A DNA stretch of 64,000 bases from Oscillospiraceae bacterium. GTDB taxonomy: Bacteria > Bacillota > Clostridia > Oscillospirales > UBA929. Position 1 is the stretch's first letter, and each line of letters starts with the position of its first letter. The translations under genes and the position numbers were made by a program. The DNA lies in assembly GCA_031549605.1 (NCBI GenBank), contig JAVBPM010000031.1:28001-92000 (forward strand). Direction: 5' to 3'. The notes beneath the pieces were generated by a model, which saw only the letters and a list, made by a program, of their open reading frames with translations, was not told where the DNA came from and made no database searches. Positions 21,384 to 62,739 of the stretch are shown piece after piece.

Positions 21384-21710
21384 CTAGTAATTACAATGCG
21401 CACTGTTCCGCTCGCCCCGCATCTCCATCCCCTGCTTGACCCACTGGTGCCCGCCGGTGGCGACCAGTGCGCAGACGCCGCCCTGCTTGATGGCGACGAG
21501 CGCCACCTGCGCGACCTCGGACAAGCTGCCTACCGGCATGGTCGTCAGCGCCGTGATGGCGGCCAGCAGGATGCCGACGCCGCCGAGTATGTACGGGATG
21601 AGCTTGTTGCTGATTTTCGGCGCATGGTGCTTGATGAGAGCGCCCAGCACAGCCAGCGCCGTGGTGATCCACACAAAGGTGGGGTTGATGAGCGTGTTGA
21701 TGTCCATCAC
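21384..21710 (-). CDS. phage holin
   Basis: 108 aa with 2-3 hydrophobic helices and a charged C-terminus, immediately downstream of and overlapping the endolysin gene. The ATG at 21707 is also a possible start. Confidence 0.75.
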   Translation of the reverse strand: MMDINTLINPTFVWITTALAVLGALIKHHAPKISNKLIPYILGGVGILLAAITALTTMPVGSLSEVAQVALVAIKQGGVCALVATGGHQWVKQGMEMRGERNSAHCNY

Positions 21711-22513
21711 TTCACCCCGAGTTTCTTAGCCATGCGGCCCTGCACGACAAGCCCGCGCAGGTCCGACTCTTTGATGGCCAGCTTGCCGTCGCCGACGCCG
21801 CCGAGCAGATTGTGGTCGACCAGATACTTGATAGGCTCCTGTGCCCAGACGGGCAGTTCCTCAATGGTGTTGTACACCGGCGCATTCACCTTCTGCTCCA
21901 GCGCGTCGATGCGGTCGCTCAATTCCTCATACTGTGTCATGGTCAAGCCCTCCTCGTTCTTTTCATATTTGGCGTAGTTGGGTCGTGCGTAGCCCGCGAT
22001 GCGCGAGTAAGCCAGCGCGTAGCGTTTGATGGCCACCTCGCCGCCGTTGGCGATGACCTCACTGCCGCCGCTGGTGTTGCCCTCGATGGTGTAGACGTTC
22101 TTGGCGTCGACCTTGCAGACGATGCCGGTGTGGACAATCAAGTTCTTGTCCTTAGCGTCGCGGAACATGATGATGTCGCCCGGCTGCGGGTTGCCGTCGA
22201 CCCACATCCCCTTTTTCTTAAACATCTTCGTGCCGGTCGTGCAACCGGCAAAGTGCGGCGCGATGTCCTGCTGGATGGCCGTGCCCAGCGCCCGGCGCAT
22301 AACGCAGCTGACGAACATGGCGCACCACGGCTCGCCCTGCAGGGTAGAGCCAAAGTAGTCCTTGTACCACTTGGCAAAGATGGTGTAGTTGTCGCGTCCG
22401 GCATTGGCCTTGAAGTTGAGCAGATAGGCCTCGGACGGGTTGGTGGTGCGCTTCTTTTCGAGGTAGCCGAGCCATTTGTTGGCCTCGGCCAGCACCGCGT
22501 TGGCTAATTCCAT
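21707..22513 (-). CDS. endolysin, CHAP/NlpC-P60-type amidase with C-terminal wall-binding module
   Basis: Catalytic Cys context GEPWCAMFVSCV and His context NLIVHTGIV. The C-terminal 70 aa resemble a single SLH-like module (WAQEPIKYLVDHNLLGGVGDGKL). Confidence 0.8.
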   Translation of the reverse strand: MELANAVLAEANKWLGYLEKKRTTNPSEAYLLNFKANAGRDNYTIFAKWYKDYFGSTLQGEPWCAMFVSCVMRRALGTAIQQDIAPHFAGCTTGTKMFKKKGMWVDGNPQPGDIIMFRDAKDKNLIVHTGIVCKVDAKNVYTIEGNTSGGSEVIANGGEVAIKRYALAYSRIAGYARPNYAKYEKNEEGLTMTQYEELSDRIDALEQKVNAPVYNTIEELPVWAQEPIKYLVDHNLLGGVGDGKLAIKESDLRGLVVQGRMAKKLGVK

Positions 22514-29448: not shown

Positions 29449-32400
29449 CTACGCCTTTCCGTCTAAATAGCCGTATCTTTGCAGCCCAACACCCAGTCGT
29501 TCAAAGAAGGTGCGCTCGTCCAGCGTCCGCCCAAACGTCAGATTGTTGGTCACCTCGGGCGCCGGTACGTGCACCTCGACCTTGGGCGTCGTGATGTTGA
29601 CCACGTTGGCCTTGAGCGCAATGCTGGCCTTGTCGGCGTCAAAGACGTCGAGCACCCGTTGCCGCGCCAACTCAGCGCCCAGCTTCTCCTGCTGCCGCTC
29701 GTAGTAGGCGGCGGGACTGACCGTCGCCGCCTGGTCTTTGCGGATGTCGGCCAGTATGCTCTTAGGAATTTTGGCCACTACGCCGTCCATGATGTCGCCG
29801 GGGAATGTCGCGGCAAACGACGCACCAATCTTGTCGACCAGTGCGTCAATAGTGCCCTTGATGCGGTCTAGGATGCTCTGTTTTCCGGCGTCAAAGCCGT
29901 CCGCGATACCGTCTGCCAGCGACTTGCCGATGCTGTTGGCCGACTTGGTGACGTCGAGCGCGGCAATTTCCTTGAGTGTCTCGGCGCGCAGGTCTTTGAG
30001 CTCCTCGGTCGCCTGTTTGTTGGCCAATCGCTGCTTTTCGGCGTACAGGTCGGCGTAGTGCGTCAGCTGCTCGTCGGTCATGCGCAGCAGTGCCGCGATT
30101 TCGTCGTTAGCTGCCGGTCCCATCTCGCGCAGCGAATCAAGCATCCCGCCCTCAATGCCCCGCTCGGCCAGCGCGGCTATGTTGTCCGACCATATCGTCA
30201 GCATAGCCACCTGATCCTCAGCGTTGGCAATCAGCCGGTCTTCTGACGTGTACTTGGGCAGCTCGACCTCGTCAAACAGGCCGTAGCTGTTGAAAATCTG
30301 CTGCGCGCGCGCCTGATGGGCGTCGGCGTAGCGCTGCTGAATGGCGTCGACCTCGGCGGCGATTTCCAGTTTGAGGTCGCGCAGCCGCTCCTCGGCCTCG
30401 ATGCGCTGCTCGGTACCGGCGGCGTACTGTTTCTGCAAGGTCGCCCACGCGCGGTACTCGTCAGCCAGCGACATTTGCTCGTACCGCTTCTTGTCGTCGA
30501 TGGCTTTCTTGGCCGCCTCAAAGTCGCGCTGTGTGATTCCCTGCTTAACGCGGTAAATCTCGCGCTGCATCTCAATGTATTCTTCCGTACCGGCGGCATA
30601 GCGCTTCAAAACGCGGTTGTAGGCGGCAATTTCCTCTTCCAACGACAGCCGCCCGTAGTACTTTTCTGTCTCAATCCAGCGCATCGAGTGTTCAAACTGG
30701 GCGCGCTTGGCGTCAATGACCTTCTGCGCCGCCTCAGCCGCGCGCTCGGCAGCTGCCTCTTGCGCCTCAAGGTTGGCCTCGCGCATCTCTTTCTCCACGC
30801 GGTAAACCTCACGGTCTATCTGCTTGCGCTGCTCACTGCCAGCGACAAAAGCCTTTTGCAGCGCCTTGTACGCCTCCAGCTCGCCCGAAAGCGACAGCCG
30901 GTCAAAGTACTTCTCGTCGTCAATCCAGCTCTCAGCGGCGTCAAGAACGCTGTCAGCCAGCTCACGCGCCGCCTTAACGGCCTCCGACTCGTTCTCTTTG
31001 ATGCCAACCGCAACGCCCAACGCGATGTTTTTACCCACGATGTCGCGCATAACCTTGGAGGGTGACCGGATTTGAGCGACAGCCTTGGCGGCGCCGATGG
31101 TATCTATCATCATGTGCTTGGACGCGGTTGCGGCAACTTTCGCATTATCGCTAATCCCCAGCATTAAGCCCAGGACAAAGTTTTTGCCCGATTCTTTCAT
31201 GACCCGCGACGGGGAGCGCTCTTGCGATACAGCCTTGGCGCTACCAATCGTCTTACGCATCATGGCAGCGGCGGCAGACGATGCTAGGCCTGTATGGTCC
31301 TCAATACCCAAAGCAAGCCCCTGTGCGACGTATTTGCCAATCGTGTAGAAGTCGCGTTCTCCGGCGGTCATTTCCTGCTCAATTCTCTTTGCAAGACTGC
31401 TAGCGGCTGCCGAAGCGCGCGGGGTGTTGTCGCGTAGACCCTTAGCCACAGCCTCGGAAACGGAGCCGCCAGTATAGTGGAATGTACCGTACAACTCCTT
31501 GATCTCGTCGACTGATAGTTCCCCTAGCCCCTTTGCCGCTTTAGCCACAAGATATGCGTATCTCTCAGCGCCGCCTGCGGCTTCACGCGCCGCCGCTTCC
31601 CCCGCCTCTCGGTACACGCCGTTGAGGTTATCAAGTTCTTCATCGGTTGCCTTAACCCAAAGCGCAACCGATTGACCCATTTTTTCAACACCCTGCTCTG
31701 ACAGCTCTTGGATAAGCTCCGGGTCAAGCCCCCTTTCGGCCAGTTTCCGCAGATTCTCTGCCCAATTTTGCTTATCAGCAAGGTTTTTCTTCAGGTTGTC
31801 GGCGGCATTTTCGGCTGAGATGGCCTCCTCTGTCGTAAGCCGCTTGAACGCGTTTATCACACCGTCAACATAGTCGTCGGCGGCCTTTTCACTTTCTTCG
31901 AGAGCCTTGGTGTAGTCTTCAAGAAGCATGCCGCGCTCATTAGCGGCGTCACGCATGGCGTCGGTCAGCTTGGCTTCTTCGTCTGCCCGTCGCTGGGCGA
32001 TTTCGGCCTGCTCTTTTTCCGCAGCGGACATTGCAGCCGTGCTATCTTCTGTTGCGGCAGCATACTTCCCTTGCTCCTCGGTGAGTATTTTAAGACTGCC
32101 AGTCGTATGGTCCAGCTTGAAACGCAGCGACGCTTGCTGCTCCGCATTTTCCTTTGATGCTTGCCCCAATTCAACTGCTTGGATCAGCGCCAGCCCTTCC
32201 GCCTCTGTAAGCTCTGCCATGCCCATGGCTTGTGTCTCGGCGGTGAATATCCAGTTCTTTCCGTACTTAGTCTTCAACTCAAGCGCAGTGGCATACATCT
32301 CTTGACCCTTTGTCCCTTCGACTAAAAGGTCATTGATTCTGGCTTGTCGTTCCGCCTGGTCTGCATCAAGCTTTTGCAATTCAGTGCGCCAGCCTTTTTG

Positions 32401-34365
32401 TGCAGCCAACGTAGCCTCAATTTCAGCGGCCAATTCAAGATGCTTTGTGTAATTGGCGAGTTCTTCACTTGACTTAGACAACGTATTTGTCGTCTCGTCA
32501 TATGACAGATTCAGCCCTTCAATTTCTCCATTGAGTGCCTTTACCTTTTCTGCAATAAGGTCTTGATAGCCTCCGTGGGTCTTTTGCGCTTCAACAAGTT
32601 CGATTAACTCATTCTTCAATGCCGTAGTGCCCTCTGCTTCAGCTTTTGCGGTTGCAACCATGTCATCGCCTTGCTCTATAGACCTCTGTGTTTCCTCTCT
32701 GGCGCGCTCGGTCGCCTCGGCGATTTCTTTCATTTCTTCTTTGTGTTTCTTCATCGCCGCCGACGGCTTGTTGAATGCGCTAGCGAGTCCCGCCATCAAG
32801 CCCGTAAGGGCGGTAACGGCTGTTATGGCCAGCATGACAGGGTTTGCGTTCAGCAATTTGACGATAGCATTAAACGCTTTTACCGCAATGCCCAGCGCGT
32901 ACAGCGCTCCTGCCGCAACCAGTACGCCTTTGATAAAACCCTCAAAGAGGCTTTCGGAGCTGGCAAGTTGCTCGCCAATAGCGCTAAAAAGAGCACCAAC
33001 CAACATCAGCCCGGCTTCAATGATAATGGGTATCAACTCCACGAGAGCCGTCACAAACACCTCGATTAGCGACGACACCGCCGCAACCACCGCCGCCTTA
33101 TTGTCAATCAGCCCCTGCACAAACGATTTGAGCAGCGACACGGCCATATTGACGACCTGCGGCGCGAAGCTGGCGGCTTTTTCCACCAACTCGGCAAACA
33201 GCTTGCCCGCCTCGCTAACCAGCCCTTGCATACCGCCCGTTTCAAACGACTTTAGCAGTTTGTCAAACGCGCCGTCGGCGTACTGCACCACATTACGCAG
33301 CGGCTTTTGAAAGCCCTCGTAGATGCCGATTCCCAGTGTCTCCATCGTGCCCGTCAGCGCCTCGACATCGCCCTTGAGGTTGTCCAACCGCTGCGCCGCC
33401 ACATCGGCGGCCTTGACCTTGTCCATTGCGGCGGCCATCTTCTTGACGCCCTCGGCACCCTCTTTGAACAGCACGTTACCCGCGCGGACGGCGTCCGACC
33501 CGAAGATGGTCTCCAGCGCCATAGCCCGCTCGGCGTCCGACAGTCCGTGCAACGACGTCTGCAGGATACCGGCGATTTCCTCCATCGACCGCAACGAGCC
33601 TTTGGCGTCGTAAAATTTGCTGGTGCCCTGCTCAGTCATCAGCCCCAGCCGCTTGAAAGTGACTGCCTGTTTCTCGGTCAGCGGCTGCAGGTTCATCAGC
33701 ATGGTCTTGAGACTTGTACCGGCGTCTGAGCCCTTGAGGCCATTCTGTGCAAACAGGGCGAGACCTGTGGCTGTATCCTTGAAGGTCATGCCCATGCCGG
33801 ACGCGACAGACGACACCTGCGACAGCCCCATCTTCATCCCCATGACATCAGTCGCCGAGGCGTTGGCCGCACCGGCGAGGATGTTGGCCGCGTCGCCGAC
33901 CGTCAGCGCATCGTCACGGAAGGCATTCAACGCCGTTGACGCCACCTCGGCGGCATCTGCGACACCAATCTCGCCCGCCGCCGCCAAATCCAGCGCGCCG
34001 GTCAAGCCGCCGCCCAGCACCTGCTCGGTCGTCAGACCGGCTTTGAGCAGTTCCTCTATGGCGTTGGCGCTCTCCGATGCCGAATAGACCGTGTCAGCAC
34101 CCGCCTTTTTGGCCGCCGCGCCCAGCTTTACCATCTCGGCCTCGGTGGCGCCCGACACCGCCTTGATGCCGCTCATGGACGCCTCGTAGTCAGCGCCCAG
34201 CTTGACAACAGGCGCACCGATGGCCATAATGCCCGCGCTCACGGCAGCCAGCGACTTGACAGCCATACCGCTCCAGCGTTTGATTGTGCTGTCGAGACCG
34301 CCCAGCAGCCGCTTTAATTCTGCGTCGTCGAACCCGACCGCGATTTTGATTGACCCGTCTGCCAT
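29449..34365 (-). CDS. tail tape measure protein
   Basis: 1638 aa, helical, A/E/K-rich, with a hydrophobic central segment, internal repeats and the canonical position after the tail chaperones. Confidence 0.9.
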   Translation of the reverse strand: MADGSIKIAVGFDDAELKRLLGGLDSTIKRWSGMAVKSLAAVSAGIMAIGAPVVKLGADYEASMSGIKAVSGATEAEMVKLGAAAKKAGADTVYSASESANAIEELLKAGLTTEQVLGGGLTGALDLAAAGEIGVADAAEVASTALNAFRDDALTVGDAANILAGAANASATDVMGMKMGLSQVSSVASGMGMTFKDTATGLALFAQNGLKGSDAGTSLKTMLMNLQPLTEKQAVTFKRLGLMTEQGTSKFYDAKGSLRSMEEIAGILQTSLHGLSDAERAMALETIFGSDAVRAGNVLFKEGAEGVKKMAAAMDKVKAADVAAQRLDNLKGDVEALTGTMETLGIGIYEGFQKPLRNVVQYADGAFDKLLKSFETGGMQGLVSEAGKLFAELVEKAASFAPQVVNMAVSLLKSFVQGLIDNKAAVVAAVSSLIEVFVTALVELIPIIIEAGLMLVGALFSAIGEQLASSESLFEGFIKGVLVAAGALYALGIAVKAFNAIVKLLNANPVMLAITAVTALTGLMAGLASAFNKPSAAMKKHKEEMKEIAEATERAREETQRSIEQGDDMVATAKAEAEGTTALKNELIELVEAQKTHGGYQDLIAEKVKALNGEIEGLNLSYDETTNTLSKSSEELANYTKHLELAAEIEATLAAQKGWRTELQKLDADQAERQARINDLLVEGTKGQEMYATALELKTKYGKNWIFTAETQAMGMAELTEAEGLALIQAVELGQASKENAEQQASLRFKLDHTTGSLKILTEEQGKYAAATEDSTAAMSAAEKEQAEIAQRRADEEAKLTDAMRDAANERGMLLEDYTKALEESEKAADDYVDGVINAFKRLTTEEAISAENAADNLKKNLADKQNWAENLRKLAERGLDPELIQELSEQGVEKMGQSVALWVKATDEELDNLNGVYREAGEAAAREAAGGAERYAYLVAKAAKGLGELSVDEIKELYGTFHYTGGSVSEAVAKGLRDNTPRASAAASSLAKRIEQEMTAGERDFYTIGKYVAQGLALGIEDHTGLASSAAAAMMRKTIGSAKAVSQERSPSRVMKESGKNFVLGLMLGISDNAKVAATASKHMMIDTIGAAKAVAQIRSPSKVMRDIVGKNIALGVAVGIKENESEAVKAARELADSVLDAAESWIDDEKYFDRLSLSGELEAYKALQKAFVAGSEQRKQIDREVYRVEKEMREANLEAQEAAAERAAEAAQKVIDAKRAQFEHSMRWIETEKYYGRLSLEEEIAAYNRVLKRYAAGTEEYIEMQREIYRVKQGITQRDFEAAKKAIDDKKRYEQMSLADEYRAWATLQKQYAAGTEQRIEAEERLRDLKLEIAAEVDAIQQRYADAHQARAQQIFNSYGLFDEVELPKYTSEDRLIANAEDQVAMLTIWSDNIAALAERGIEGGMLDSLREMGPAANDEIAALLRMTDEQLTHYADLYAEKQRLANKQATEELKDLRAETLKEIAALDVTKSANSIGKSLADGIADGFDAGKQSILDRIKGTIDALVDKIGASFAATFPGDIMDGVVAKIPKSILADIRKDQAATVSPAAYYERQQEKLGAELARQRVLDVFDADKASIALKANVVNITTPKVEVHVPAPEVTNNLTFGRTLDERTFFERLGVGLQRYGYLDGKA

Positions 34366-37617: not shown

Positions 37618-38451
37618 TTACGCCGCGACCTTGACGATGAGGTCGGGTGTGACAGCGGCCACGCCGTAGTAGTAGAACAGCGACACGGCATAGGCCTCGG
37701 ACAGCGGAATCTTCTCGGCGGTGTAGGGGCGCGGCAGCACGGGCATGGCCACGGCGCCGTCAATCATGCCGAGGATGCTGACACCGGTCGGCAGATAGAC
37801 CGAGCTGTACACCTTGACGCCGTGGAAGATTTTGAACTCTTCGGCGGCGGTGTCGACGTTGGCTCTGACCGTCTTGTCCAGCGAACTGCGCAACGCGCCG
37901 TAGGTGGCGGTGTCGAGAATGATGTTGATCATGTCGCGGTCGACGCCATCGACGTAGTCGTTCTTGGTCGTCTCAATCTGCTGAATGACCGCCTCGACCT
38001 TGTCGGCAATTTCGGTCGCCGTCGGAGTGGCGGCTGTCGCGGCAGTGGCGGCGCACTGGAAGAATGCGCGTTCCAGCTCACGACCCATGGTCTTCTCGTG
38101 GTTGGCCGAGCGCTTGGTCAACAGGCCGTCGACGCCGTACAGCAGCGTATCCTTCTGCTCGACCTCCTCGACGATCTCGCGGTCAATGTCGATTTTGACG
38201 GTGACGGGCGACGCTTTCAGGTTGGCGCCCTTGCCGCCGCTGCGAGCCGTACCATAGGCGGCCGATTTGGCGTTGGCAAAGCGCTTGGCTTCAACCGAGC
38301 CGCTGGCGGGGTCGCCGGACAGGTCGGTGTTTTTCAACAGCGTCGAAAGCGTGCCTTTCTGCACGTTGTCGATGACCTTACCATACAGCTCGGACAGAAA
38401 GTCCTTGCCGGTGGGGTCGAGCAAAATGCTCAGTGCTTCAATTCTTGACAT
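37618..38451 (-). CDS. major capsid protein
   Basis: 277 aa immediately downstream of the scaffold gene. Composition and length fit an HK97-fold coat protein. Assigned by position. Confidence 0.7.
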   Translation of the reverse strand: MSRIEALSILLDPTGKDFLSELYGKVIDNVQKGTLSTLLKNTDLSGDPASGSVEAKRFANAKSAAYGTARSGGKGANLKASPVTVKIDIDREIVEEVEQKDTLLYGVDGLLTKRSANHEKTMGRELERAFFQCAATAATAATPTATEIADKVEAVIQQIETTKNDYVDGVDRDMINIILDTATYGALRSSLDKTVRANVDTAAEEFKIFHGVKVYSSVYLPTGVSILGMIDGAVAMPVLPRPYTAEKIPLSEAYAVSLFYYYGVAAVTPDLIVKVAA

Positions 38452-38475: not shown

Positions 38476-39045
38476 TTAGATTACGGTCGGGTGCGTGGTG
38501 GTTGCCGCCGTGCTCGGCGCGTCGCCTACGGGCGGAATGACGACGGCGGGAGCGCTCTCATCCACGAAGATGCCGGGCATGGGGTCGTCGCCCTCACCCT
38601 TGGTCATGGCGGCAAAGAGCTGCTCGCGGCTCTTACCGGCGTTGCTTGGGTCTTCCAGCGCCGCGTTGATTTCCCGCTCGAAGTGCGCCGCCGTCATGGC
38701 GTTGACGAACTTGTGGCCGCCGAGGAACTCACGCGTGTCGGCGTGCAGCTTGACCTTGGTCAGCTCCTTGTCGTTGTCAGCCTTGAGCTGCTCCATGTCC
38801 TTGAGCAGCTGGGCGTTGGCCACTCGCAGCGCGTCAAAGTCCTTGCCCTCAAAACTCTTGAGCTTCGTCTCAACCTCTGCCAACTGGCCCTGCGCGGTGT
38901 CGCGCTCGGCGGTGATGGTGGCCAGTGCGTCCTCGGCCTGCTTGACTTTCGTCTGCTCGGCTGCGACGTCCCTGCCGTATTCGGCCATCACAAAGGCGAT
39001 TTGCGCCTCGGTCAAGCCCTGATCTTGCAGTTTCTTGGTATCCAT
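38476..39045 (-). CDS. capsid scaffolding protein
   Basis: 189 aa, highly helical and charged (QAEDALATITAERDTAQGQLAEVETKLKSFEGKD), upstream of the capsid gene. Confidence 0.7.
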   Translation of the reverse strand: MDTKKLQDQGLTEAQIAFVMAEYGRDVAAEQTKVKQAEDALATITAERDTAQGQLAEVETKLKSFEGKDFDALRVANAQLLKDMEQLKADNDKELTKVKLHADTREFLGGHKFVNAMTAAHFEREINAALEDPSNAGKSREQLFAAMTKGEGDDPMPGIFVDESAPAVVIPPVGDAPSTAATTTHPTVI

Positions 39046-39140
39046 GTGTCTACTCCTTTCGTATTAGGTTGTTTTAGGTGTGTAACCAGCCACCACGAAT
39101 CGACTGTTTTAGGTCTAATCTACTGACCGATTTTGGGTAT

Positions 39141-39170
39141 AACAAAAGCGCCCTGTCACAGGCGCTTTGC
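39141..39170 (-). terminator. hairpin terminator inside structural gene array
   Basis: AGCGCC(C)TG-tca-CAGGCGCT stem. On the minus strand it is followed by TTTTGTTA. Lies about 20 nt after the stop at 39188. Confidence 0.45.
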
Positions 39171-39187
39171 TATTGAGTTTTAGGCGG

Positions 39188-39655
39188 TCATCCGACCGCG
39201 AGGCAGATATCTTTCAGCCGATCGCTCCGCTCGGAAAGTTGACGCTTCATGCTGTCGACCTTGGCATATTCGCGCTTTACGGTGCTGAATTTGCTACTGG
39301 CTTCATCGCCAAGCCCATTTACCACCGAGAGCATGGCGTCAGATAATTCACCACCCAGCAGTGTGAGGATGTTCTTGTCGCCATGCGGCGCCTCTCTATA
39401 GCGCGGGTCGGCAGCAAGCACCTTCTCAAGCTGGAAGATGTGCTCTGACAGCGGCTGAGCCGCCTCATGGACTCGCTTCTGCAAGTTTCGCGCCTTCAGG
39501 TCGAGAAAGATAACGGGATAATCATAGCCACAGTGCGGACACGCGAAATAGGTCTCCTGCACCACAATCGTTCGCCCGTCAACCGTCTTCGTGTGACTGC
39601 GCTTTTTCAGCTTGGTAAGCTCAAATGTCTCGCCACATTTGGCGTCACATTGCAT
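39188..39655 (-). CDS. zinc-ribbon protein, unknown function (moron-like)
   Basis: CDAKCGETF...CPHCGYDY Cys pairs. Lower GC than its neighbours. The ORF track starts at TTG 39709, but ATG 39655 is more plausible. Confidence 0.5.
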   Translation of the reverse strand: MQCDAKCGETFELTKLKKRSHTKTVDGRTIVVQETYFACPHCGYDYPVIFLDLKARNLQKRVHEAAQPLSEHIFQLEKVLAADPRYREAPHGDKNILTLLGGELSDAMLSVVNGLGDEASSKFSTVKREYAKVDSMKRQLSERSDRLKDICLAVG

Positions 39656-39745
39656 CTGCAAAATAGCATTCTCCTCTCTCGGACATCCATTCAAACCACA
39701 GACCCGCAAAACCGATAGTGTTTAACGGGATCGAAATCGATCTGT

Positions 39746-39991
39746 TTAAACATTGTCTACGACGCGTATATCTTCGACTTCAGAAACATAGATAACCGTC
39801 CACGGTTCATGGTCGCTTGCGCTAATCTCTATGCTCTCCTCTTCGTGCTCGCCACTTTCATAATCGTGGTATTCCTCATCGTGCCCTCTATACAGGCCCT
39901 CCATCGGAGGTGCGTCATCAAGAAATGTTATCAGTAGCGTTGTTTCGCCTTCGATAGCATTTAGCGCTTTGATGCGCTCTAACAATGTCAT
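39746..39991 (-). CDS. small acidic protein, candidate immunity partner of the MuF C-terminal domain
   Basis: 81 aa, very acidic (HDEEYHDYESGEHEEESIEISASDHE). The start overlaps the stop of the MuF gene by 4 nt. Confidence 0.5.
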   Translation of the reverse strand: MTLLERIKALNAIEGETTLLITFLDDAPPMEGLYRGHDEEYHDYESGEHEEESIEISASDHEPWTVIYVSEVEDIRVVDNV

Positions 39992-41562
39992 GGCTCTGTC
40001 TCCTTCCTTGGCACAATATGCGTCCCTGTTTTTCTGTAGTGAATTTTGAAGCTGTTAGTTTGGTATTCAGCACCGCCACTAACGGCAATTCCAATCGGCT
40101 TGTCTGCGCGGACAACCTCACGTTTTGTGAATGCACCCGCTCTTGTCTTCGCAAAGGTGCCAGTACCGGCGTATCTATCCACAAGCCGCTGTGCATCATC
40201 AAGGCCACCAAATATATAGCTCTTGCCTTCAATGTACTTGTCACCCTTTATATGCTCAAGCTGTTTGCTCTTAATTATGTTTAATTTCTGCGATCCGTCC
40301 TTTATCTGACTACGGATGTAGTCTACCGCTTTATTATACTCCAGTTCGCTTTGCGCTGCAAGCTTTTTGACCCCTGCGCCCCGCGTGTACCTCGCCACCG
40401 CCGCTCGTTCCGGCTGCGTCGGCAAGCCCATCTGCTTGCTGAACGCCACATACTGCTGGTTGATGGTCGTAACCCGCGCTTTTTCCAGCAGGGCCGCCTC
40501 GTGGTCGCCTGCCTTTTCAAACGCCACGGCGCGGTCTTTGTGCTTGCGCAGCTCACTTTCAAAGCGGCGCTGGCGCTGCGTGGCCTCGTAGGTGGTGTAG
40601 CTGCCGTTGCCATAGTCGTGCTTGACCATTTCCTCGGCGTTCATGCGGTCGAGCTGCTCGGGCGTGTAGTTAGCCACCGAAACGTCCATCATAATGGGCA
40701 TGGAGTAGTGGCGGCAGCCATAGTCGTACAAATGGTGCTCAACGCTGCGATGAAACTCTTGGTTGGAGAACTGCCGACCCTGAAACCACATGTGCTCCGG
40801 ACGCGACCCGCTGTGCCAGTCTATCTCGACGCCGTCCGAGCCGAACTCGGCACCCTCACGCGCTGACTGCTCCTGCACCAGCCGCGACAACGCATCGTTG
40901 ACCGCCTGCCGGACGCTGCTGTCCAGCCGTCGCGTGGTGCCGCTCGGATACTTGACCTTGGTGATGCCGTTGTCGTCAAAGGCGTCAGACAGGCCACCGT
41001 CGGCCAGCCGCTGCACTGTCTTGTGCATGACGCTGTTGAAGTCGTCTGCGCCCAGCATCACTTGCGAGGCGGCGTAGTCGATATGCGACTGATAGGCCGC
41101 GCTCCACGGGCGCCACACCGGCGTGTCGTCCAGCCGCAGCTTTACCGAACGCGGGCTGTAAAAGCCTCGGTTGGCCGTTAGCTGTGTCACCCGCTCGGCT
41201 GTCTCGCGGCTTGCCTTGCGCACAATAGCCTTGAGCGGTTCATGCTCGGCATACGGCACAAAGATGCGTCCGGCAGCTTCGTAGGCCGGTTGCGTGGCGT
41301 TGTGGCGCGTCGCCGACATCAGCGCAAGCAGTGCGGCAATCCCCACAGCAGCGCTGGCGTCGGTGCGCTCCATAGCCGCCTCAAGCGCCGCCAGTTCCTC
41401 GCTGGCATCAGTCAGAAGCTTCAACGCCGCCAAGTCGTGCTTGCCAACCTCGCCGATGCGCTTGATTCGCTCGCACAGCGACACAACCATGTCGCGCTCG
41501 GCCTGACGGTACTGCGCGGCAATGCTGTCGACCAGTGCGTCAAGCTGCTCCTTGGTCAGCAT
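39988..41562 (-). CDS. MuF/SPP1-gp7-like minor head protein with extra C-terminal domain
   Basis: MuF core motif VEIDWHSGSRPEHMWFQGRQF and a position after the portal gene. The last ~125 aa are an AT-richer appended domain ending ...FKIHYRKTGTHIVPRKETEP. Confidence 0.8.
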   Translation of the reverse strand: MLTKEQLDALVDSIAAQYRQAERDMVVSLCERIKRIGEVGKHDLAALKLLTDASEELAALEAAMERTDASAAVGIAALLALMSATRHNATQPAYEAAGRIFVPYAEHEPLKAIVRKASRETAERVTQLTANRGFYSPRSVKLRLDDTPVWRPWSAAYQSHIDYAASQVMLGADDFNSVMHKTVQRLADGGLSDAFDDNGITKVKYPSGTTRRLDSSVRQAVNDALSRLVQEQSAREGAEFGSDGVEIDWHSGSRPEHMWFQGRQFSNQEFHRSVEHHLYDYGCRHYSMPIMMDVSVANYTPEQLDRMNAEEMVKHDYGNGSYTTYEATQRQRRFESELRKHKDRAVAFEKAGDHEAALLEKARVTTINQQYVAFSKQMGLPTQPERAAVARYTRGAGVKKLAAQSELEYNKAVDYIRSQIKDGSQKLNIIKSKQLEHIKGDKYIEGKSYIFGGLDDAQRLVDRYAGTGTFAKTRAGAFTKREVVRADKPIGIAVSGGAEYQTNSFKIHYRKTGTHIVPRKETEP

Positions 41563-41565
41563 GGC

Positions 41566-42870
41566 CTACTCCGCCACCGCAATCGGCAAATTCTCGGCCG
41601 CCGTCTCGACATCCTCGCCGGTGATGTAGGCGCGTACCTCCTCGGGTCGGATGACGCCCATCGCCGCGCCCTGCCTTAACTGCTCGAAGCTCTCGGCGCT
41701 GTCCTCAATGAGCGCATAGCTCCAGTCGTAGTTGAGCTCGTACTTGCCGGACGGTGCCAACCGGTTGACCGTGGCCAGCACGTCGCAGGCATAAGCGTAC
41801 CCGTCAAGCGTCGCCTCAATGTTCTTGCGCAGCGCGTCGACCAGGGCAAAGGTGTCGAAGGTAGAGCGCTTGATGGCCGTCGCCGTGCCGTCTGTGTTGT
41901 CGAGGTCAGTCAGCACGCCCTTGTTGACGCCGATGGCCTTTTCCAGCAGTGACAGCCGGAAGTTGACCATGTCAACCATCTGCTGCGTGCGAATGTCGGG
42001 TGAAAAGACCTCGAAGAAAGGCTTGTCGTCGACGCCAACGGTGGCATCAAGCTTTTTGAAGATGTTGGCGCCGGGCAGAATGCGCTCCTTGCCGTCAGGC
42101 CCCTTGGAGAACAGACGCACGTCGGCGCCAATAAAGGCCTCCTTGTTGGCCATCTCGCGTTGCATGATGGCCAGCGCCTCGACAATCTCATCCATCAGCG
42201 TCTCACAGCCAAAGGTGACCGGCACGCCCTTGAACGCCGTCTCAGCCTTACGGTTGGCAGTCGGGCAGCGTAAATACGCCCACAGCGGCTGCTTGACGTT
42301 GGTGATCGTCTGCTCGGGCGGCAGACCAGCCCACGACGGCACTTTGTCCAGCGGCACCTCGTGACCGTTGCACTCAGCCTTCTGTTGGATGGTGTAGACA
42401 CCGTTGGCGGCCAGCGTGTGCACCTCCAGCCGCTCGTAAGTCCTGCCGTCCACCTGCTCAACCGCCGCGAGAAACGCCGCCTTGGCGACCGTCTCGCCGC
42501 GCCGCTCCAGCACGATCAACCTTGTCTGGTCGAGTACGTCAAGATAGAGCTTGCCATCCATCACCCACGGCTTGAGCACCACACCGCCTACGCCAAGCGC
42601 CCGTGCCGCGATAGGCCGCAAGCCGTCGACGCAGCGCTGCACAGCGTCACCAATCAGCACAGCCCGCGCGTTGACGCCCCCCACCTCAATGGTGGCGTCG
42701 GCCACCGCCACAGTCGCCACCTTGTTGGCCACGACGGCGGTCAGGTTGAACTTGGAGATGTCGGCGTACCGCTCGGCAAAAGCGACATCGTCGACCTCCT
42801 CGGCCACCTTGGGCTTGACGCCGAGCCACCGCAACAGCCACCGCAGCGCCTCTTGAATTTTCAATCGCAT
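41566..42870 (-). CDS. portal protein
   Basis: 434 aa between the large terminase and MuF genes. Confidence 0.8.
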   Translation of the reverse strand: MRLKIQEALRWLLRWLGVKPKVAEEVDDVAFAERYADISKFNLTAVVANKVATVAVADATIEVGGVNARAVLIGDAVQRCVDGLRPIAARALGVGGVVLKPWVMDGKLYLDVLDQTRLIVLERRGETVAKAAFLAAVEQVDGRTYERLEVHTLAANGVYTIQQKAECNGHEVPLDKVPSWAGLPPEQTITNVKQPLWAYLRCPTANRKAETAFKGVPVTFGCETLMDEIVEALAIMQREMANKEAFIGADVRLFSKGPDGKERILPGANIFKKLDATVGVDDKPFFEVFSPDIRTQQMVDMVNFRLSLLEKAIGVNKGVLTDLDNTDGTATAIKRSTFDTFALVDALRKNIEATLDGYAYACDVLATVNRLAPSGKYELNYDWSYALIEDSAESFEQLRQGAAMGVIRPEEVRAYITGEDVETAAENLPIAVAE

Positions 42871-42882
42871 TGTACACCGCCT

Positions 42883-44130
42883 CTATTCTCCGGCCTCTCG
42901 CCAAATCATGTTTGTCGCATAACGCACCGCGTCAATGCAATGGTCGTTGCCGTCTTGGAACTGGTCTATCAGACTGCCGTCGGGCGCCTTGGCATAGGAA
43001 AAGTCGGAAAACTCACGCGCCGCAGTGGGGCAGCGCCGCTCGTCAATGACGATTTCGCTCAATCCCTGTAGCCACTTCATCGAGTAGTTGCGGCTGCCCG
43101 GCTTCTTGCTGGCCGCCAGCGCTCTATCCAGCCCGTAAGCGCGCAGGTCGGCAATCGAACGCTTGTCGCTGTTGTCGCAAATCAGCGTGTCATCGGGCTG
43201 CACGCCCTCGGCCACCAACCGCTCGTAGACGTCGTGACTGCTGGCGCGGTACAGTATGGCCTCGCCGTATATGTACAGCTTGCGTAGCCCATGCTCGTAG
43301 TGGCATCGCACATAAGCGGTCGGGTCGGGGTAATAGCCCCAGTCCAGCCCGTGACAGGCGCGTTCAAAGCCTTTGATGTCCTCATCAGAGATGGCGGCCA
43401 GCGTGACGTTTTCAAAGGCCAGCCCCTCGACAACGCCCCAGTCGCCGAGACCGGCCACACGGTAGCGTGTCGGGTCGCGCAGCTTCATGCTTCCAAACAT
43501 TAGCCGGTCGGCCTCGTCCAAAAACTCGTTGCAGGTATAGTTGGTCGTCTTGGCCAGTACATCGGGTGACGGTCGACAGTCAAAGAACCGCGCCTTGAGC
43601 CAGTGCCGTCCGCTCCACGGGTTGAATGTTAGCGTCACTTGCTTAAACAGCGGCGGCTCGACATGACCGCGAATGGATTCGTCCAGCATATTGAAGTCGG
43701 CCTCGCTGCCCACCTCGTAGGCTTCCTCGATCCACATCCAGCACAGCGAGCCCCGCTCGACCGTGATGGAGGTAATCTTCATGGGGTCGTCAAGGCCGCG
43801 AAAGAGTATCTTCTGCCCCGTCGGGCGGTAGGTCATTTCGAGCGGCGACTCCTTGCAGTCCCACCACATCTCAACACCCAGCCGCCGCATCGCCCACTTG
43901 AGGTCGGTGTAGCAGCTGTCCTTGAGTGTGCGGAACACCTTGCGCACCACCAGCAGGTTGGCGTCGGGGTACTGCATCAGCCGCACAATAAAGTTGAGCG
44001 CCGTCGTCTTGGATTTCTTGCTGGCGCGGCTACCCTTGCAGACGCGATAACGGCCTCTAAACGCCCAAAAGTCGCCGTAGCCGCCGCCAACTATGTCGGG
44101 GATGGATGTCGTCTTACGGGGCAACGTCAT
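42883..44130 (-). CDS. terL: terminase large subunit
   Basis: Walker A-like KGSRASKKSKT, a C-terminal nuclease region, and ATG 44130 (MTLPRKTT...). The ORF track extends to 44334. Confidence 0.85.
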   Translation of the reverse strand: MTLPRKTTSIPDIVGGGYGDFWAFRGRYRVCKGSRASKKSKTTALNFIVRLMQYPDANLLVVRKVFRTLKDSCYTDLKWAMRRLGVEMWWDCKESPLEMTYRPTGQKILFRGLDDPMKITSITVERGSLCWMWIEEAYEVGSEADFNMLDESIRGHVEPPLFKQVTLTFNPWSGRHWLKARFFDCRPSPDVLAKTTNYTCNEFLDEADRLMFGSMKLRDPTRYRVAGLGDWGVVEGLAFENVTLAAISDEDIKGFERACHGLDWGYYPDPTAYVRCHYEHGLRKLYIYGEAILYRASSHDVYERLVAEGVQPDDTLICDNSDKRSIADLRAYGLDRALAASKKPGSRNYSMKWLQGLSEIVIDERRCPTAAREFSDFSYAKAPDGSLIDQFQDGNDHCIDAVRYATNMIWREAGE

Positions 44131-44590
44131 CAGCCCCTGACAGCACCACCGGCACGGCGTCAAGCTGCACCTTGTCGGTAAAGAGCGCGTACCGCTTGCC
44201 CAGTAGCTCGGCGGCTTTGTTGACGTCAGACAGCCGCGGCCTGATGGGTACGACAACAGGCTCCTCTCGCTCCCTGGTGGTCCTCTTGCCGTTCTTGTCG
44301 TAGCCGCTGGTGCGGCTCTTGACAGTGACGACAACGTGCTCGTCCTCTTGGCGGCGCAAAACGCGGGTCAGCGTCTCCATGACCTCAGTAGCGTCGGCGA
44401 TGCGATTTGACTTGATTTCTTCGAGCAATTGGTCGATTCTGTCGCGAATCTTATGTTTTTTCAATAGGGCGCCAGCCATTTGAGCGGCGCTCCGCCCTTC
44501 ATACCCTGCCCGAATGGCCGCCTGCGTCGCGTTACAGTCGACGATATACTCCTGGCAGAACCGCTCCTGCCGGTCATTCAATTCAGCCAT
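44114..44590 (-). CDS. terS: terminase small subunit
   Basis: MAELNDRQERFCQEYIVDCNATQAAIRAGY is the classic small-terminase HTH N-terminus. Confidence 0.75.
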   Translation of the reverse strand: MAELNDRQERFCQEYIVDCNATQAAIRAGYEGRSAAQMAGALLKKHKIRDRIDQLLEEIKSNRIADATEVMETLTRVLRRQEDEHVVVTVKSRTSGYDKNGKRTTREREEPVVVPIRPRLSDVNKAAELLGKRYALFTDKVQLDAVPVVLSGADDVAP

Positions 44591-47451: not shown

Positions 47452-48732
47452 CTACACCGCCACAATTTCGTCGAGCTGGGCGGCCACAATACCCTGTATC
47501 AAATACTCCACGCACGGCAGCGCGACGCTGTTGCCCAGCGCTTTGTAGCGCGCGCTGTCGCTGATTGGCTTGCCGTCGTGGGCGTAAGCCGTCCAACCGT
47601 CAGGAAAACCCTGTAGCCGCTCGCATTCTGTCGGCGTGAGGCGGCGGACGGTCTGCTGTTGTTCCAACACGCAAATGCCGCCTTGGTTTTTTGCTTGGTC
47701 AGGCGGTGCGCAATCAAGCGTTTTTGCCGTTTCGACTTGTCTGCACCCGCTGTGTGGGTTGCTTGATTTCATGCTGTTCGATGCTAGGCTGTCAAAACTG
47801 TATGCGACGCCGGTGACCAAATCCGTTGCGTCTTTGTAGTCTCGTGCCTTGACTGTACTCGCTTGCTCGGATTGCTTGTAATCACCGATGGCCTGCATGG
47901 CGAACACCGCGTGTCGGTCGAACACATACCCCGCCGGATTCCTCCCGCCGCCGCCATCCGCCCCGCTGAGTGTTGGGCTTACACCGCTCGGTGTGAAGAT
48001 GCGTCGCTCTTGAGTGTCCCATCCTGTGAGATAATCTGTGCCTGTAGGGCTGCTTTCAGTGCCTCCGGCAACTCCTTGCCGCGATTCTCCGCCCGTCGTA
48101 AAATGCCCACGCAGGCTTTCGGGCTTAAATAGTACTTCTGCGGCACGTCGACCTCTAAAATCTGCGACAAGAAAGACTCTCTTGCGACGCTGGGGCACTC
48201 CCCAAAATTGTGCGTCTGGTGTTCGCCATCCAAAGTCGCACTGGTAGCCTCGCACCATTCCGGCGTCAGCCCATCTTCCTTGCACAGGCATTGGAAGCTC
48301 GGCATTTGCAAAGGATTGCAGCACGGCTCTAAAATCAAGCCCGTCATTTGATGACAAAGCTCCTGGGACGTTTTCCCAAATAGCCCAAGTTGGATATAGC
48401 CCATTGGTCGCTGCCCTCATTTCCTCTATGATGCGCATGGCCTCACCAAGCAGTCCTGACCGCGCCCCGGCCAACCCAGCGCGTTTACCGGCCGTGCTAA
48501 AGTCCTGACACGGGCTGCCGAATGTGACGATGTCCACCGGCTCAATCTCGGCACCATTGATTTTCGTGATGTCGCCGAGGTGCTTCATGTTCGGGAAGTG
48601 ACGTTTCGTAATACTGATGGGCGCGGCTTCGATTTCGCTCGCCCATACCGGCTCAATGCCGTACCATGCGGCGACACACGGGAAGCCGCCTATGCCGTCG
48701 AAAAGGCTGCCGAGTTTTAGTGGTGCACTCAT
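47452..48732 (-). CDS. dcm: DNA (cytosine-5)-methyltransferase
   Basis: Motifs LFDGIGGF (I), FGSPCQDFS (IV), ENVPG (VI), QRRKRVFLV (VIII), TECERLQGFPDGWT (X). ATG 48732 preceded by GGGAGGGG. Confidence 0.9.
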   Translation of the reverse strand: MSAPLKLGSLFDGIGGFPCVAAWYGIEPVWASEIEAAPISITKRHFPNMKHLGDITKINGAEIEPVDIVTFGSPCQDFSTAGKRAGLAGARSGLLGEAMRIIEEMRAATNGLYPTWAIWENVPGALSSNDGLDFRAVLQSFANAELPMPVQGRWADAGMVRGYQCDFGWRTPDAQFWGVPQRRKRVFLVADFRGRRAAEVLFKPESLRGHFTTGGESRQGVAGGTESSPTGTDYLTGWDTQERRIFTPSGVSPTLSGADGGGGRNPAGYVFDRHAVFAMQAIGDYKQSEQASTVKARDYKDATDLVTGVAYSFDSLASNSMKSSNPHSGCRQVETAKTLDCAPPDQAKNQGGICVLEQQQTVRRLTPTECERLQGFPDGWTAYAHDGKPISDSARYKALGNSVALPCVEYLIQGIVAAQLDEIVAV

Positions 48733-48752
48733 GTCGGTATCCCCTCCCACAG

Positions 48753-51254
48753 CTACGCACCCTCCTCCAGCAGGTCAAACAGCGTCGGCTGGCCAACGTC
48801 CTGCTCGGCCGCCTTCAGGTACCCAACGCCGTCGCGGAAGTAGTCGAGGCTCAACTCGGTGCCTATGCCGTACCGTCCCGCCTTCACGGCTCGCAGTGGC
48901 ACGGTAAACAGACCGGCAAACGGGTCAAAGACCACATCGCCCTTGTTTGAAAAGCGGTTTATGATGCGGTCTACGATATCGAGCTGCAGCGGACAGACGT
49001 GCATTTGGAGGTTGCCACGGCGTTGGTCTGTGTTAAGTGTTCGCATCCGATTGATGTCGTCCCACACCTCGTCGCTCCAACTGCCCGGCTGCATCACCGC
49101 AAAGGTGGACGGTAGCTTGCCGTCTTTGTCCAGTTCTTTTGCCATCTCAATATGAGCCTCATAGTCGTAGACCGTTCCGCGCGAGTATTTACGGAATAAC
49201 GTTTGTATTTTCCCGCTCTCTGCCGACATGATTTCCGCCTTGGTCACAAGTCGATCGCCGGAACTGCGCCAAAAGCCCGATGCGTCAATCTGCCACTGCG
49301 CCCGCGTGTAATCCTCTTTGCTCTTTTCAACCGGCACGTCGGCAAATCCGTCAGAGGTGTCGCTGGGCAGCTTGCGAAACAGCAAAATATACTCAGGACA
49401 CCCTACCCCCATTTTTGTGCCGTCCCTGCACTGCATGGACCAGCCAAGCCGATAGGTCTGGTTGTTCTCGCGCACAACGTCGGTCACCACGGTGATCATC
49501 CCGAAGTAACGGAATCCGTGGCGGGTGTAGTGGTCGATGCACATTGCGTGGAATGGCTCGATGGTTGGGAACCCGTCACCCGTCACGCTGCCGAACTGCA
49601 CTCGGTCTTTGACATGGCAGGCAAAGATGCGGCCGGGCTGCAAGATGCGCAGTAGCTGCGGCGTGAGATAATCCATCTGCTCAAAGAATTTGGCGGTGTT
49701 TTCGTTGTGACCGAAGTCGTTGTAGCTGGGTGTGTACTCGTAGTGGTTGGAAAACGGAATTGATGTATGGATTAACCCCACGCTGTCGCTTTCCATCTGC
49801 TCACATTCGAGAATGCAATCGTTATGTATGGCAGTAAACTGTTGACCCTGAACCTTCACACGTTCCACTCCTATCGACCGAGCCATCTTGTCTACCATGG
49901 ACACGCCGGACAGCCCGTGCTTTTTAATAATGCCTGTCATGACCTCGGTCAGCGCGTCATGTTGTTTCCACTTAGCCATAAGCACCTTGAGTATCTCCTG
50001 CTCACCCTCGGTGTAGATGATGTCGATAATGACCTGCTCACTCTGTAGAAAGCGGTAGATGCGGTGAATGGCTTGAATGAAGTCGTTGAACTCGTAATCA
50101 ATGCCGACAAAAATGGCGCGGTGGCAGTGCCGTTGAAAGTTGCAGCCGGAGCCGGACAGGCTTTTCTTGGTAGCAAACAGCTTCACCCTACCCTCGGCAA
50201 AGTCGATGACGCGCCGCTCGCGTGCGTCAAGGTCCATAGACCCGAATATGTCCACCGCATGCGGTAGTGCCGCTTTGATCTCGTGCCGCTCGGCCTCAAG
50301 GTCATGCCATAGGATAAAATGCTCATCAGGTGACATGTTCACGATTTCAGCCATTTTTGCAACACGTGCGCGGATACTGTCTCGTTTTTCTCCTGCGGCA
50401 TCGGACAGCGATAGTGAGGCGTCGCGCAGCAGTTTTGTCTGTCCGTCCTTGTCTGAATCGACCGCGGCGTAGTCGGTTTCAATCATGTGCAACCGCACGT
50501 CCATCGGCGGCAGGGCGTAGCCTTTGTCGTCATAGCCGAGATCAGACGGTTTTGTGATAAACAGTGCCCAACTGGACACCCACAGCCAAAACTCTTGTTC
50601 TTTGTGCGGGTATAGGGTAAGGTTGTTGGCTTTGGTGCTGTCTCGCTTAAAGAACCGGGTCAGCGCTTGGCCGGTGTCCATGACTTCTAGGTACCCAGCG
50701 TAATGAATCAGTTCCTTGTAGCGATTGGGCGATGGCGTCGCTGTCGACACCAGCTTATAGGGCACGCCCCTGAATTTATCGAGAAACGTCTGATAGGTCT
50801 TGCTGCCAAACGACCGCAGCACTGACGCCTCATCAAGACAGGTGGCCGTGAAGTGGCTCGGGTCGATGTCGCCGTCTCTCACCCGCTCATAGTTGGTGAG
50901 CAGTATCGCACCTTCTGCCGCTGCTGCTTCGGCCATGTTGCGGATGTATTGCGGTTCTGCCAACCCCAAAAGGTGTACTGCGTCGTGGACAAATTCCTGC
51001 TTGACGCCAAGTGGGCAGACAATCAGCGCTTTGCCGCCCATTTTTTCGGTGACGATGCGGCAATACTCCAACTGTTGTATCGTCTTTCCCAACCCGAACG
51101 ACTGAAACAGTGCCCGTTTACCGCCCTGTAACGCCCACACCACGCTGTCACGCTGGTGCGGCTTGAGCGCCGGGTGTATCTCGCTTGGGTCAATAGCAAA
51201 TCCGCTCTCGGTCGCCATTGCTATCTTAGAGCGGAGGAAGTCTGAATAGGTCAT
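48753..51254 (-). CDS. SNF2-type helicase fused to N6/N4 DNA methyltransferase
   Basis: N-terminal SNF2 motifs (LFQSFGLGKT, CLDEASVLRS, helicase-C region). C-terminal MTase motifs (TSIPF catalytic-like, VFDPFAGLFTVPLRA SAM-binding). ATG 51254. Confidence 0.85.
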   Translation of the reverse strand: MTYSDFLRSKIAMATESGFAIDPSEIHPALKPHQRDSVVWALQGGKRALFQSFGLGKTIQQLEYCRIVTEKMGGKALIVCPLGVKQEFVHDAVHLLGLAEPQYIRNMAEAAAAEGAILLTNYERVRDGDIDPSHFTATCLDEASVLRSFGSKTYQTFLDKFRGVPYKLVSTATPSPNRYKELIHYAGYLEVMDTGQALTRFFKRDSTKANNLTLYPHKEQEFWLWVSSWALFITKPSDLGYDDKGYALPPMDVRLHMIETDYAAVDSDKDGQTKLLRDASLSLSDAAGEKRDSIRARVAKMAEIVNMSPDEHFILWHDLEAERHEIKAALPHAVDIFGSMDLDARERRVIDFAEGRVKLFATKKSLSGSGCNFQRHCHRAIFVGIDYEFNDFIQAIHRIYRFLQSEQVIIDIIYTEGEQEILKVLMAKWKQHDALTEVMTGIIKKHGLSGVSMVDKMARSIGVERVKVQGQQFTAIHNDCILECEQMESDSVGLIHTSIPFSNHYEYTPSYNDFGHNENTAKFFEQMDYLTPQLLRILQPGRIFACHVKDRVQFGSVTGDGFPTIEPFHAMCIDHYTRHGFRYFGMITVVTDVVRENNQTYRLGWSMQCRDGTKMGVGCPEYILLFRKLPSDTSDGFADVPVEKSKEDYTRAQWQIDASGFWRSSGDRLVTKAEIMSAESGKIQTLFRKYSRGTVYDYEAHIEMAKELDKDGKLPSTFAVMQPGSWSDEVWDDINRMRTLNTDQRRGNLQMHVCPLQLDIVDRIINRFSNKGDVVFDPFAGLFTVPLRAVKAGRYGIGTELSLDYFRDGVGYLKAAEQDVGQPTLFDLLEEGA

Positions 51255-51354
51255 GTGCTTTACCTCGATTTGTTGAAGTTTGGTTTCTCCGGCACTCGCC
51301 GCATTCGTATGTACAAGCTCCAGCCGGTTAGGTCGTTGTAGACGCACTCGGTGG

Positions 51355-62692: not shown

Positions 62693-62739
62693 ACAGAAAA
62701 AAGCCCTGCCATAAGGCAGGGCGCGAGAGGTGGTGTAAT

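Follow-up and report, generated by a model that had tools for sequence, protein, structure and literature searches.

Polymorphic toxins of the MuF type are encoded by temperate phages and prophages of Firmicutes. They join an N-terminal domain of the MuF superfamily, be it PF04233, PF06152, MuF3 or MuF4, to a variable C-terminal toxin domain, are encoded directly after the portal gene in the head and packaging module, and are followed directly downstream by a short open reading frame (ORF) of fewer than 150 amino acids (PMC5576092, PMC3482391). This place behind the portal gene is what marks out muf genes by their context (PMC5576092). Ntox50 is explicitly listed among the MuF-associated toxin domains, and MuF-Ntox50 fusions are already catalogued (PMC3482391, PMC5576092). 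Here we describe such a fusion, followed by an acidic ORF of 81 residues, in a prophage of an Oscillospiraceae bacterium (contig JAVBPM010000031.1, positions 28,001 to 92,000). This whole 64,000-nucleotide stretch is called the window, and coordinates count from its first letter.

Ntox50 is predicted to be a ribonuclease (RNase) domain of the BECR fold, with conserved H, S, K, T, H and K residues and an HxVP motif (Zhang et al. 2012, PMC3482391). That study names MuF among the Ntox50 delivery contexts and lists no Ntox50 immunity family. The closest characterised relative of the domain in the window is the C-terminal domain of YxiD (YxiD-CTD), from a Bacillus subtilis toxin delivered by an LXG/type VII secretion system (T7SS) domain. 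YxiD-CTD cleaves tRNAs, and the activity of Ntox50 domains is that of an RNase or a tRNase (PMC12700104). The tRNase activity of YxiD requires H447, H521, H528, K446 and K524 (Rohilla et al., PMC12700104). Its partner YxxD, of about 112 residues, is Sm-like. An acidic loop between strands β2 and β3 of YxxD (D33-D46) enters the basic active site of YxiD and sterically excludes RNA (PMC12700104). In the literature searched, this paper is the only one that ties an Sm-like fold to polymorphic-toxin immunity. MafI2, which partners the MafB2 toxin of Neisseria meningitidis, differs from YxxD in fold and in recognition mode (PMC12700104).

The characterised MuF toxins described as of 2024 were Apk2 and Bxa, the latter being the subject of the paper concerned (PMC11699363). 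Apk2 is a (p)ppApp synthetase and Bxa an ADP-ribosyltransferase (PMC11699363, PMC10083569). Like the protein described here, both combine a MuF capsid domain with a C-terminal toxin, are encoded in the head module and have one or more small immunity genes next to them. The toxin chemistry differs, being that of a predicted RNase in the window. Apk2 and Bxa also have an additional enzymatic immunity protein, whereas the window shows a single candidate blocker.

We read the window locus, with a probability of roughly 0.8, as a MuF-family polymorphic toxin-immunity module in a prophage head operon, in which an Ntox50 RNase toxin is paired with an 81-residue acidic blocker. The locus shares with MuF polymorphic toxins the N-terminal MuF-superfamily domain (here MuF2, PF06152), the position directly after the portal gene in the head and packaging module, the C-terminal toxin domain, the small downstream ORF and residence in a Firmicute prophage. 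Nothing categorical sets it apart from them. The window protein is at most 36% identical to any relative found, and direct searches leave its putative immunity ORF an orphan. The locus is a new, rather divergent member of the catalogued MuF-Ntox50 toxins.

The fusion gene and its Ntox50 domain

The fusion gene is complete in the ORF listing (39988..41562, minus strand). It encodes 524 residues with matches to both PF06152 and PF15542, has DWHSGSRPEHMWFQGRQF at residue 248 and ends in ...FKIHYRKTGTHIVPRKETEP. Residues 1-395 (40378..41562, minus strand) form the MuF2 core, which is common to all relatives. Pfam matches PF06152 (Phage_min_cap2) to residues 2-374, over model positions 1-364 of 366 (E 2.5e-44; 152 bits, the cut-off being 26.3). 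Within the MuF superfamily, Jamet et al. 2017 (PMC5576092) give PF06152 the name MuF2. An earlier note on this DNA, made from the sequence alone, had described a MuF/gp7 core. A head domain of the MuF superfamily it is, and the narrower assignment does not hold: the Mu F/SPP1 gp7 family PF04233 was rejected, since the Pfam family is PF06152. In PHROGs, phrog_581 (minor head protein) covers residues 1-521, and phrog_19468, whose function is unassigned, matches the tail from residue 412. The core is presumably the portal-associated, capsid-targeting part of the protein.

The core is followed by a linker or pre-toxin segment, residues 396-430 (40273..40377, minus strand), in low-GC DNA. Here the alignment with 12 relatives diverges, after about residue 395, and the segment is not conserved across MuF2 relatives.

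The C-terminal 90 or so residues are, by sequence, a full-length Ntox50 domain and a predicted BECR-fold RNase. The earlier note had left the toxin family open, and Pfam supplies it. PF15542 (Ntox50) matches residues 431-518 (40009..40272, minus strand) over model positions 3-92 of 92, with an E-value of 6.7e-24 in the whole protein and 1.2e-24 for the domain by itself. The corresponding scores, 84.9 and 87.3 bits, stand against a Pfam cut-off of 22.2. Among the 563 six-frame ORFs of the window, the 524-residue gene gives the sole Ntox50 match. The tail also matches, at the sequence level, YxiD-CTD (PDB 9v8i_B, E 1.9e-5) and MafB2-CT (PDB 8hhj_B, E 1e-3). Neither PADLOC nor NCBIfam gave a match for the fusion protein or for the products of the 81-residue ORF and the 173-residue ORF that follows it.

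Residue mapping onto YxiD places the catalytic residues (all on the minus strand). His437 (40252-40254) corresponds to H447, His508 (40039-40041) to H521 and Lys511 (40030-40032) to K524. His515, the first residue of the HxVP motif His515-Ile-Val-Pro518 (40009-40020), corresponds to H528. The three catalytic histidines, the lysine and the HxVP motif are thus all retained. Identity with YxiD (PDB 9V8I, PMC12700104) is about 40% over the aligned core, and the H/H/K/HxVP residues are shared. The delivery domains differ, that of the window protein being a phage capsid protein and that of YxiD an LXG/T7SS domain. MafB2-CT (paired with MafI2; PDB 8HHJ) likewise has an Ntox50-type RNase domain, and its EHIKG/KHISG and HIVP motifs align. 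In MafB toxins the N-terminal part is instead a MafB secretion domain. On this reading the 524-residue protein would have RNase activity and be toxic.

The relatives of the fusion protein are distant. A search of 5.8 billion proteins returned closest relatives of only 24-36% identity, mostly from metagenome assemblies. Some MuF2 relatives have no tail and stop at the core end, at 387-433 residues. Among the tails of the others are a PF03496 ADP-ribosyltransferase (1) and a PF18810 PBECR2 domain (1), and further tails are unannotated. An Ntox50 tail is found in two other MuF2 relatives (P0004 and P0008). Two more (P0003 and P0007) share a C-terminal domain that has no Pfam annotation (...RF.G....M.I.P..G.I...) and may be an undescribed MuF-associated toxin domain. 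Conservation of the tail in ordinary MuF proteins would have spoken against the earlier note, and it is not seen: plain relatives end at about 387-404 residues, and others carry different tails.

The composition of the gene changes at the same place. The first 395 codons (40378-41562, minus strand) have a GC content of 0.630 and a GC content at third codon positions (GC3) of 0.803. For the last 129 codons (39991-40377, minus strand) the values are 0.465 and 0.473. This bears out the lower-GC extension of about 125 residues described in the earlier note. The 81-residue ORF (39749-39991, minus strand) is close to the tail in composition (GC 0.469, GC3 0.481), while the 173-residue ORF (39191-39709, minus strand) lies at 0.539 and 0.636, and the scaffold, portal and capsid genes at 0.61-0.63 and 0.83-0.84. 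In 60-nt windows the GC change point falls at about 40340-40370. In the alignment with the 12 relatives the conserved core ends at about residues 386-395, the last invariant column being R386, so the recombination breakpoint that the earlier note proposed to look for coincides with the composition step.

The toxin domain and the 81-residue ORF together make a cassette of foreign composition, about 630 bp long (39746..40370, minus strand). Its GC content of 0.465 compares with a prophage mean of 0.579 (standard deviation 0.037), and only 0.27% of stretches of that length, taken over positions 22-56 kb, are as GC-poor. Third codon positions show the shift most strongly, and it therefore reflects foreign DNA and not amino-acid content. 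The protein breakpoint equals the GC3 step, and the tail and the small ORF share a composition; a single acquired cassette is therefore the simplest reading. The toxin-immunity cassette was probably acquired as a unit and recombined at the end of the MuF core.

The predicted 81-residue acidic partner

The predicted cognate immunity protein is encoded by the 81-residue ORF (39746..39991, minus strand), on the basis of its overlap with the toxin gene, a family profile and an AlphaFold2 (AF2) model. Its start codon overlaps the toxin stop codon as ATGA, by 4 nt. A strong Shine-Dalgarno sequence, AAGGAGA, lies within the end of the toxin gene (39999..40005, minus strand), 7 nt before the ATG. The overlap and the ORF's own Shine-Dalgarno sequence fit translational coupling to the toxin gene. 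The protein has 22 acidic (D+E) against 4 basic (K+R) residues and an isoelectric point (pI) of 4.09. The highly acidic ORF overlapping the muf stop by 4 nt thus stands as the earlier note had it. It has no sequence match in Pfam, NCBIfam, PADLOC or PDB.

The family context of the ORF comes from phage genomes. A search with the window domain found no relatives of it in viral contigs. IMG/VR was therefore sampled by scanning with a degenerate DNA pattern encoding IHYxKxGxHIVP, which yielded 117 Ntox50 ORFs, about half of which match the MuF2 profile. An acidic ORF of 52-85 residues (pI 4.05-5.31) follows the Ntox50 gene in 101 of the 117 loci. A YxxD-type ORF of 101-117 residues follows in ten, the locus ends before any ORF in five, and one has another arrangement. 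The modal spacing of the short ORFs is -4 nt (44 of 101), identical to that of the window ORF, whose size and pI also fall inside the ranges of the short family. The family pattern comprises, in this order, a helix, V.V.LkDG....G, an acidic DNEPE-like stretch, SI.I and E.EI.SIEVI.

A profile was built from 79 unique short ORFs downstream of phage Ntox50 genes, with the window sequence excluded. The window ORF scores 16.3 bits against it, compared with a maximum of 11.5 among 2000 composition-matched shuffles, and it is the sole match among the 563 six-frame window ORFs (E 2.3e-4). MAFFT aligns it with family members end-to-end and in register. The small ORFs at the toxin stop in P0004 and P0008, one of 52 residues at -4 nt and the other of 83 residues abutting the stop, score 28.4 and 25.4 bits. 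Pairwise BLASTP of the three MuF2-Ntox50 small ORFs (window, P0004 and P0008) was not significant, and the phage profile alone connected them. A profile search of four MuF2 loci that lack Ntox50 found no short-family ORF. The small ORF thus goes with the tail, as the earlier note would have it, being present in three of three MuF2 loci with Ntox50 and in none of four without. Across the phage set, toxin divergence and small-ORF divergence co-vary (Mantel r 0.39; none of 2000 permutations reached this value). By its sequence the 81-residue ORF is a weak, divergent member of a short-ORF family genetically tied to Ntox50, and the MuF toxin/immunity layout suspected in the earlier note gains support from both halves, the Ntox50 tail and the acidic ORF.

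The predicted fold of the family is Sm-like. The short-family profile matches Lsm/Sm/Hfq-like proteins in PDB (best E 0.002, with dozens of Sm proteins at E < 1), single members match Pfam SM-ATX, LSM, Gemin6 and LSM14, and some family entries in databases bear the name LSM domain-containing protein. For the 81-residue protein, an AF2 model made from a 12-sequence alignment has a mean predicted local distance difference test score (pLDDT) of 80.6 and a predicted template modelling score (pTM) of 0.66. It has a helix at residues 3-9 and strands at 18-23, 30-34, 53-57, 65-68 and 72-78. The predicted order α-β1-β2-loop-β3-β4-β5 is the Sm topology, and Hfq/Sm proteins are the top Foldseek neighbours of the model (template modelling (TM) scores 0.55-0.72). 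The loop between β2 and β3, residues 35-52 (RGHDEEYHDYESGEHEEE; 39836-39889, minus strand), is acidic in the model, with 9 D/E among its 18 residues.

The small protein would thus share with YxxD, by prediction, an acidic Sm-like build with the acidic loop between β2 and β3. At 81 residues it is shorter than YxxD and has no counterpart of the YxxD C-terminal extension (α2 and extra strands). YxxD-type sequences were retrieved from Bacillales genomes, and the D33-D46 loop is evident in them. Membership of the 81-residue ORF in the YxxD family itself was considered and rejected, hhalign and reciprocal hidden Markov models (HMMs) with shuffled controls being marginal. By analogy with the YxiD complex and on the AF2 model, the protein most likely works like YxxD. 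We lean slightly towards the wider proposal that the short acidic Sm-like ORFs of 52-85 residues found after most phage Ntox50 genes, the 81-residue orphan among them, are an unnamed, widespread immunity family with a minimal version of the YxxD mechanism.

Three observations concern the wider set of partners. The ten phage loci with a YxxD-type ORF of 101-117 residues are L024, L030, L031, L065, L090, L095, L105, L107, L120 and L121; a B. subtilis-type immunity protein therefore circulates in phages too. In P0008 (L004:3460-4968) an Arg replaces the second catalytic His (IRYSKNGWHAFP), and the downstream Sm-like ORF is still kept. A further sequence from a Logan contig (P0020, 144 residues) carries, one after the other in a single ORF, two distinct short Sm-like immunity domains, which could be a poly-immunity arrangement or an artefact of frame fusion.

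Proposed action and competing explanations

In the mechanism that we propose, the MuF2 domain would attach to the portal and bring one or a few copies of the fusion into each capsid, by analogy with SPP1 gp7. The fusion protein would in this way be packaged in the capsid. In the lysogen or the producing cell, protection would come from the 81-residue protein. Its acidic loop would enter the toxin's basic cleft, where RNA is bound and the active site lies, and block it 1:1, as YxxD does with YxiD. On infection the toxin would enter a new, non-immune cell with the ejected DNA, its target being a competitor or the host being taken over. Neutralisation by the 81-residue protein, packaging and delivery are what we infer for this locus; toxin delivery and its ecological pay-off are hypothetical for the whole MuF family.

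Several results weigh against this interpretation. On the toxin side, the substrate-binding Lys446 of YxiD is replaced by Glu436 in the window protein; the two other MuF2-Ntox50 proteins likewise have Q or E there. The AF2 model of the C-terminal domain, built from three sequences, has low confidence (pLDDT 52) and was not relied on; Foldseek with this model had 9v8i_B (E 8e-4) and 8hhj_B on top, at TM scores of only 0.35-0.41. The MuF toxin literature that was searched holds no characterised toxin of the Ntox50 type. On the side of the partner, direct searches with the 81-residue ORF in 5.8 billion and 1.84 billion proteins returned only the ORF itself. Its 16.3-bit profile score is modest, and HMMER aligns the C-terminal half only (residues 39-78), so that the N-terminal half aligns in MAFFT alone. 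Some of the co-variation between toxin and small ORF is to be expected from the linkage of adjacent genes. Sequence homology of the short family to YxxD is marginal and falls short of demonstration. An hhalign comparison, in register, gives P 1.2e-3 and a probability of 20%, the YxxD-family HMM gives the window ORF 1.9 bits, and YxxD sequences score no better against the short-family profile than about the 95th percentile of shuffles.

The same molecules could serve another end. A virion-borne Ntox50 RNase might act in phage infection and not in bacterial competition, for instance in host shut-off, in destruction of host or rival-phage RNA or in counter-defence at entry, with the 81-residue protein guarding the producer during assembly only. 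This is a real possibility, if clearly the less probable one. The toxin's fusion partner is a capsid-internal, portal-associated protein of the late head operon, as this role would have it, and a 2024 account calls the biological role of MuF toxins unknown (PMC11699363). MuF toxins have, however, been reported only in temperate phages, which fits a benefit to the lysogen (PMC5576092). An immunity gene in a late operon is compatible with infection and competition alike, and the sequence does not decide between the two.

A second explanation leaves the toxin in place and questions its partner. The 81-residue ORF might encode an Sm/Hfq-like RNA-binding or assembly accessory protein, or be spurious, and have no part in immunity. 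Its predicted fold is indeed Sm/Hfq-like, its profile score is modest and very large protein databases hold no direct homologue. Yet a pI of 4.09 with 22 acidic residues is the opposite of an RNA-binding Sm/Hfq surface, and the strong Shine-Dalgarno sequence and ATGA overlap speak for a genuine gene. The same family follows 101 of 117 phage Ntox50 genes and is absent from the MuF2 relatives that have no Ntox50, and the ORF has its foreign composition in common with the toxin domain. We consider this explanation improbable.

Slightly less probable again is that immunity, or a second immunity function, resides in the next gene. The 173-residue ORF (39188-39709, minus strand) encodes a Cys-rich, Zn-ribbon-like protein, probably of 157 residues from an internal ATG. 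It sits between the 81-residue ORF and the scaffold gene, has an intermediate GC3 of 0.64 and weakly resembles YgiT/MqsA-type antitoxin zinc fingers (E 0.015-0.02, sub-threshold); Bxa and Apk2 have two documented immunity genes (PMC11699363). Against it, the ORF is separated from the 81-residue ORF by a 36-nt gap and uncoupled, belongs to phrog_1315 (function unassigned, E 6e-11) and is without relatives in 184 other loci (5447 ORFs), the majority of them with an Ntox50 toxin gene. The idea that it belongs to the cassette was rejected for this last reason, and it may be an independent moron.

Hardly credible, finally, is a C-terminal extension that is a remnant without activity, or an ordinary head-protein tail specific to the lineage, its low GC coming from amino-acid composition: the change of Lys446 to Glu436 and the poor AF2 model would suit it, but the Pfam match is full-length and 60 bits above the cut-off, three catalytic histidines and HxVP are retained, the GC shift is strongest at third positions (0.80 to 0.47), and other MuF2-Ntox50 proteins also have Q or E at the K446 equivalent.

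The surrounding prophage and the meaning of the locus

The toxin-immunity module lies in an ordered head-morphogenesis operon. The portal gene (41566..42870, minus strand; phrog_533, E 2e-52) ends 3 nt before the muf start and is itself preceded by TerL (42883-44334, minus strand). The minus-strand order is TerL, portal, MuF2-Ntox50, 81-residue ORF, 173-residue ORF, scaffold (38476-39045), major capsid (37618-38451) and, later, tape measure (29449-34365). Positions 39100-41600 have no nucleotide match among GenBank phages.

The element is an integrated siphovirus-type prophage, with muf in its head-morphogenesis operon. It has a tyrosine integrase (62647-63783), an ImmA/IrrE-like gene (61817-62692) and a CHAP lysin (21707-22513). 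A host SpoIIE gene (14377-16905) adjoins a tRNA-Leu (17026-17109), and these flanking genes therefore mark a prophage integrated in a sporulating Firmicute of about 60% GC. Three other parts of the element were noted. An island at 18-20 kb is low in GC (0.455), and its ORFs have no Pfam match. Two DNA methyltransferase genes (47452-51347, minus strand) encode a C5-cytosine methylase of 432 residues and an 864-residue protein that joins an SNF2-related domain to an N6/N4 methylase, and they probably have anti-restriction or epigenetic functions. A 522-residue protein with BspA-type leucine-rich repeats (PF13306; 27050-28618, minus strand) is encoded in the tail and host-recognition region.

For annotation, a minor capsid protein and a hypothetical protein can be relabelled as a predicted RNase toxin with its putative inhibitor. 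The sharp GC3 step offers a clean example of a cassette swap at the end of the MuF core. Together with the 100-odd phage loci, the window locus provides a compact, testable pair with clear catalytic residues and a specific structural prediction of how the toxin would be neutralised, by the acidic loop between β2 and β3 of a miniature Sm barrel. The finding extends a known family and leaves current understanding unchanged. What is modestly new is that the ORFs after phage Ntox50 genes belong together in a coherent acidic, Sm-like family without a name, which has a parallel in the recently solved mechanism of YxxD. If the proposal for this family is right, its members would be Sm barrels in which the acidic β2-β3 loop acts as an RNA mimic or active-site plug, and the extreme divergence of the window copy, which has no match in 1.84 billion representative proteins, would reflect rapid co-evolution of toxin and immunity protein.

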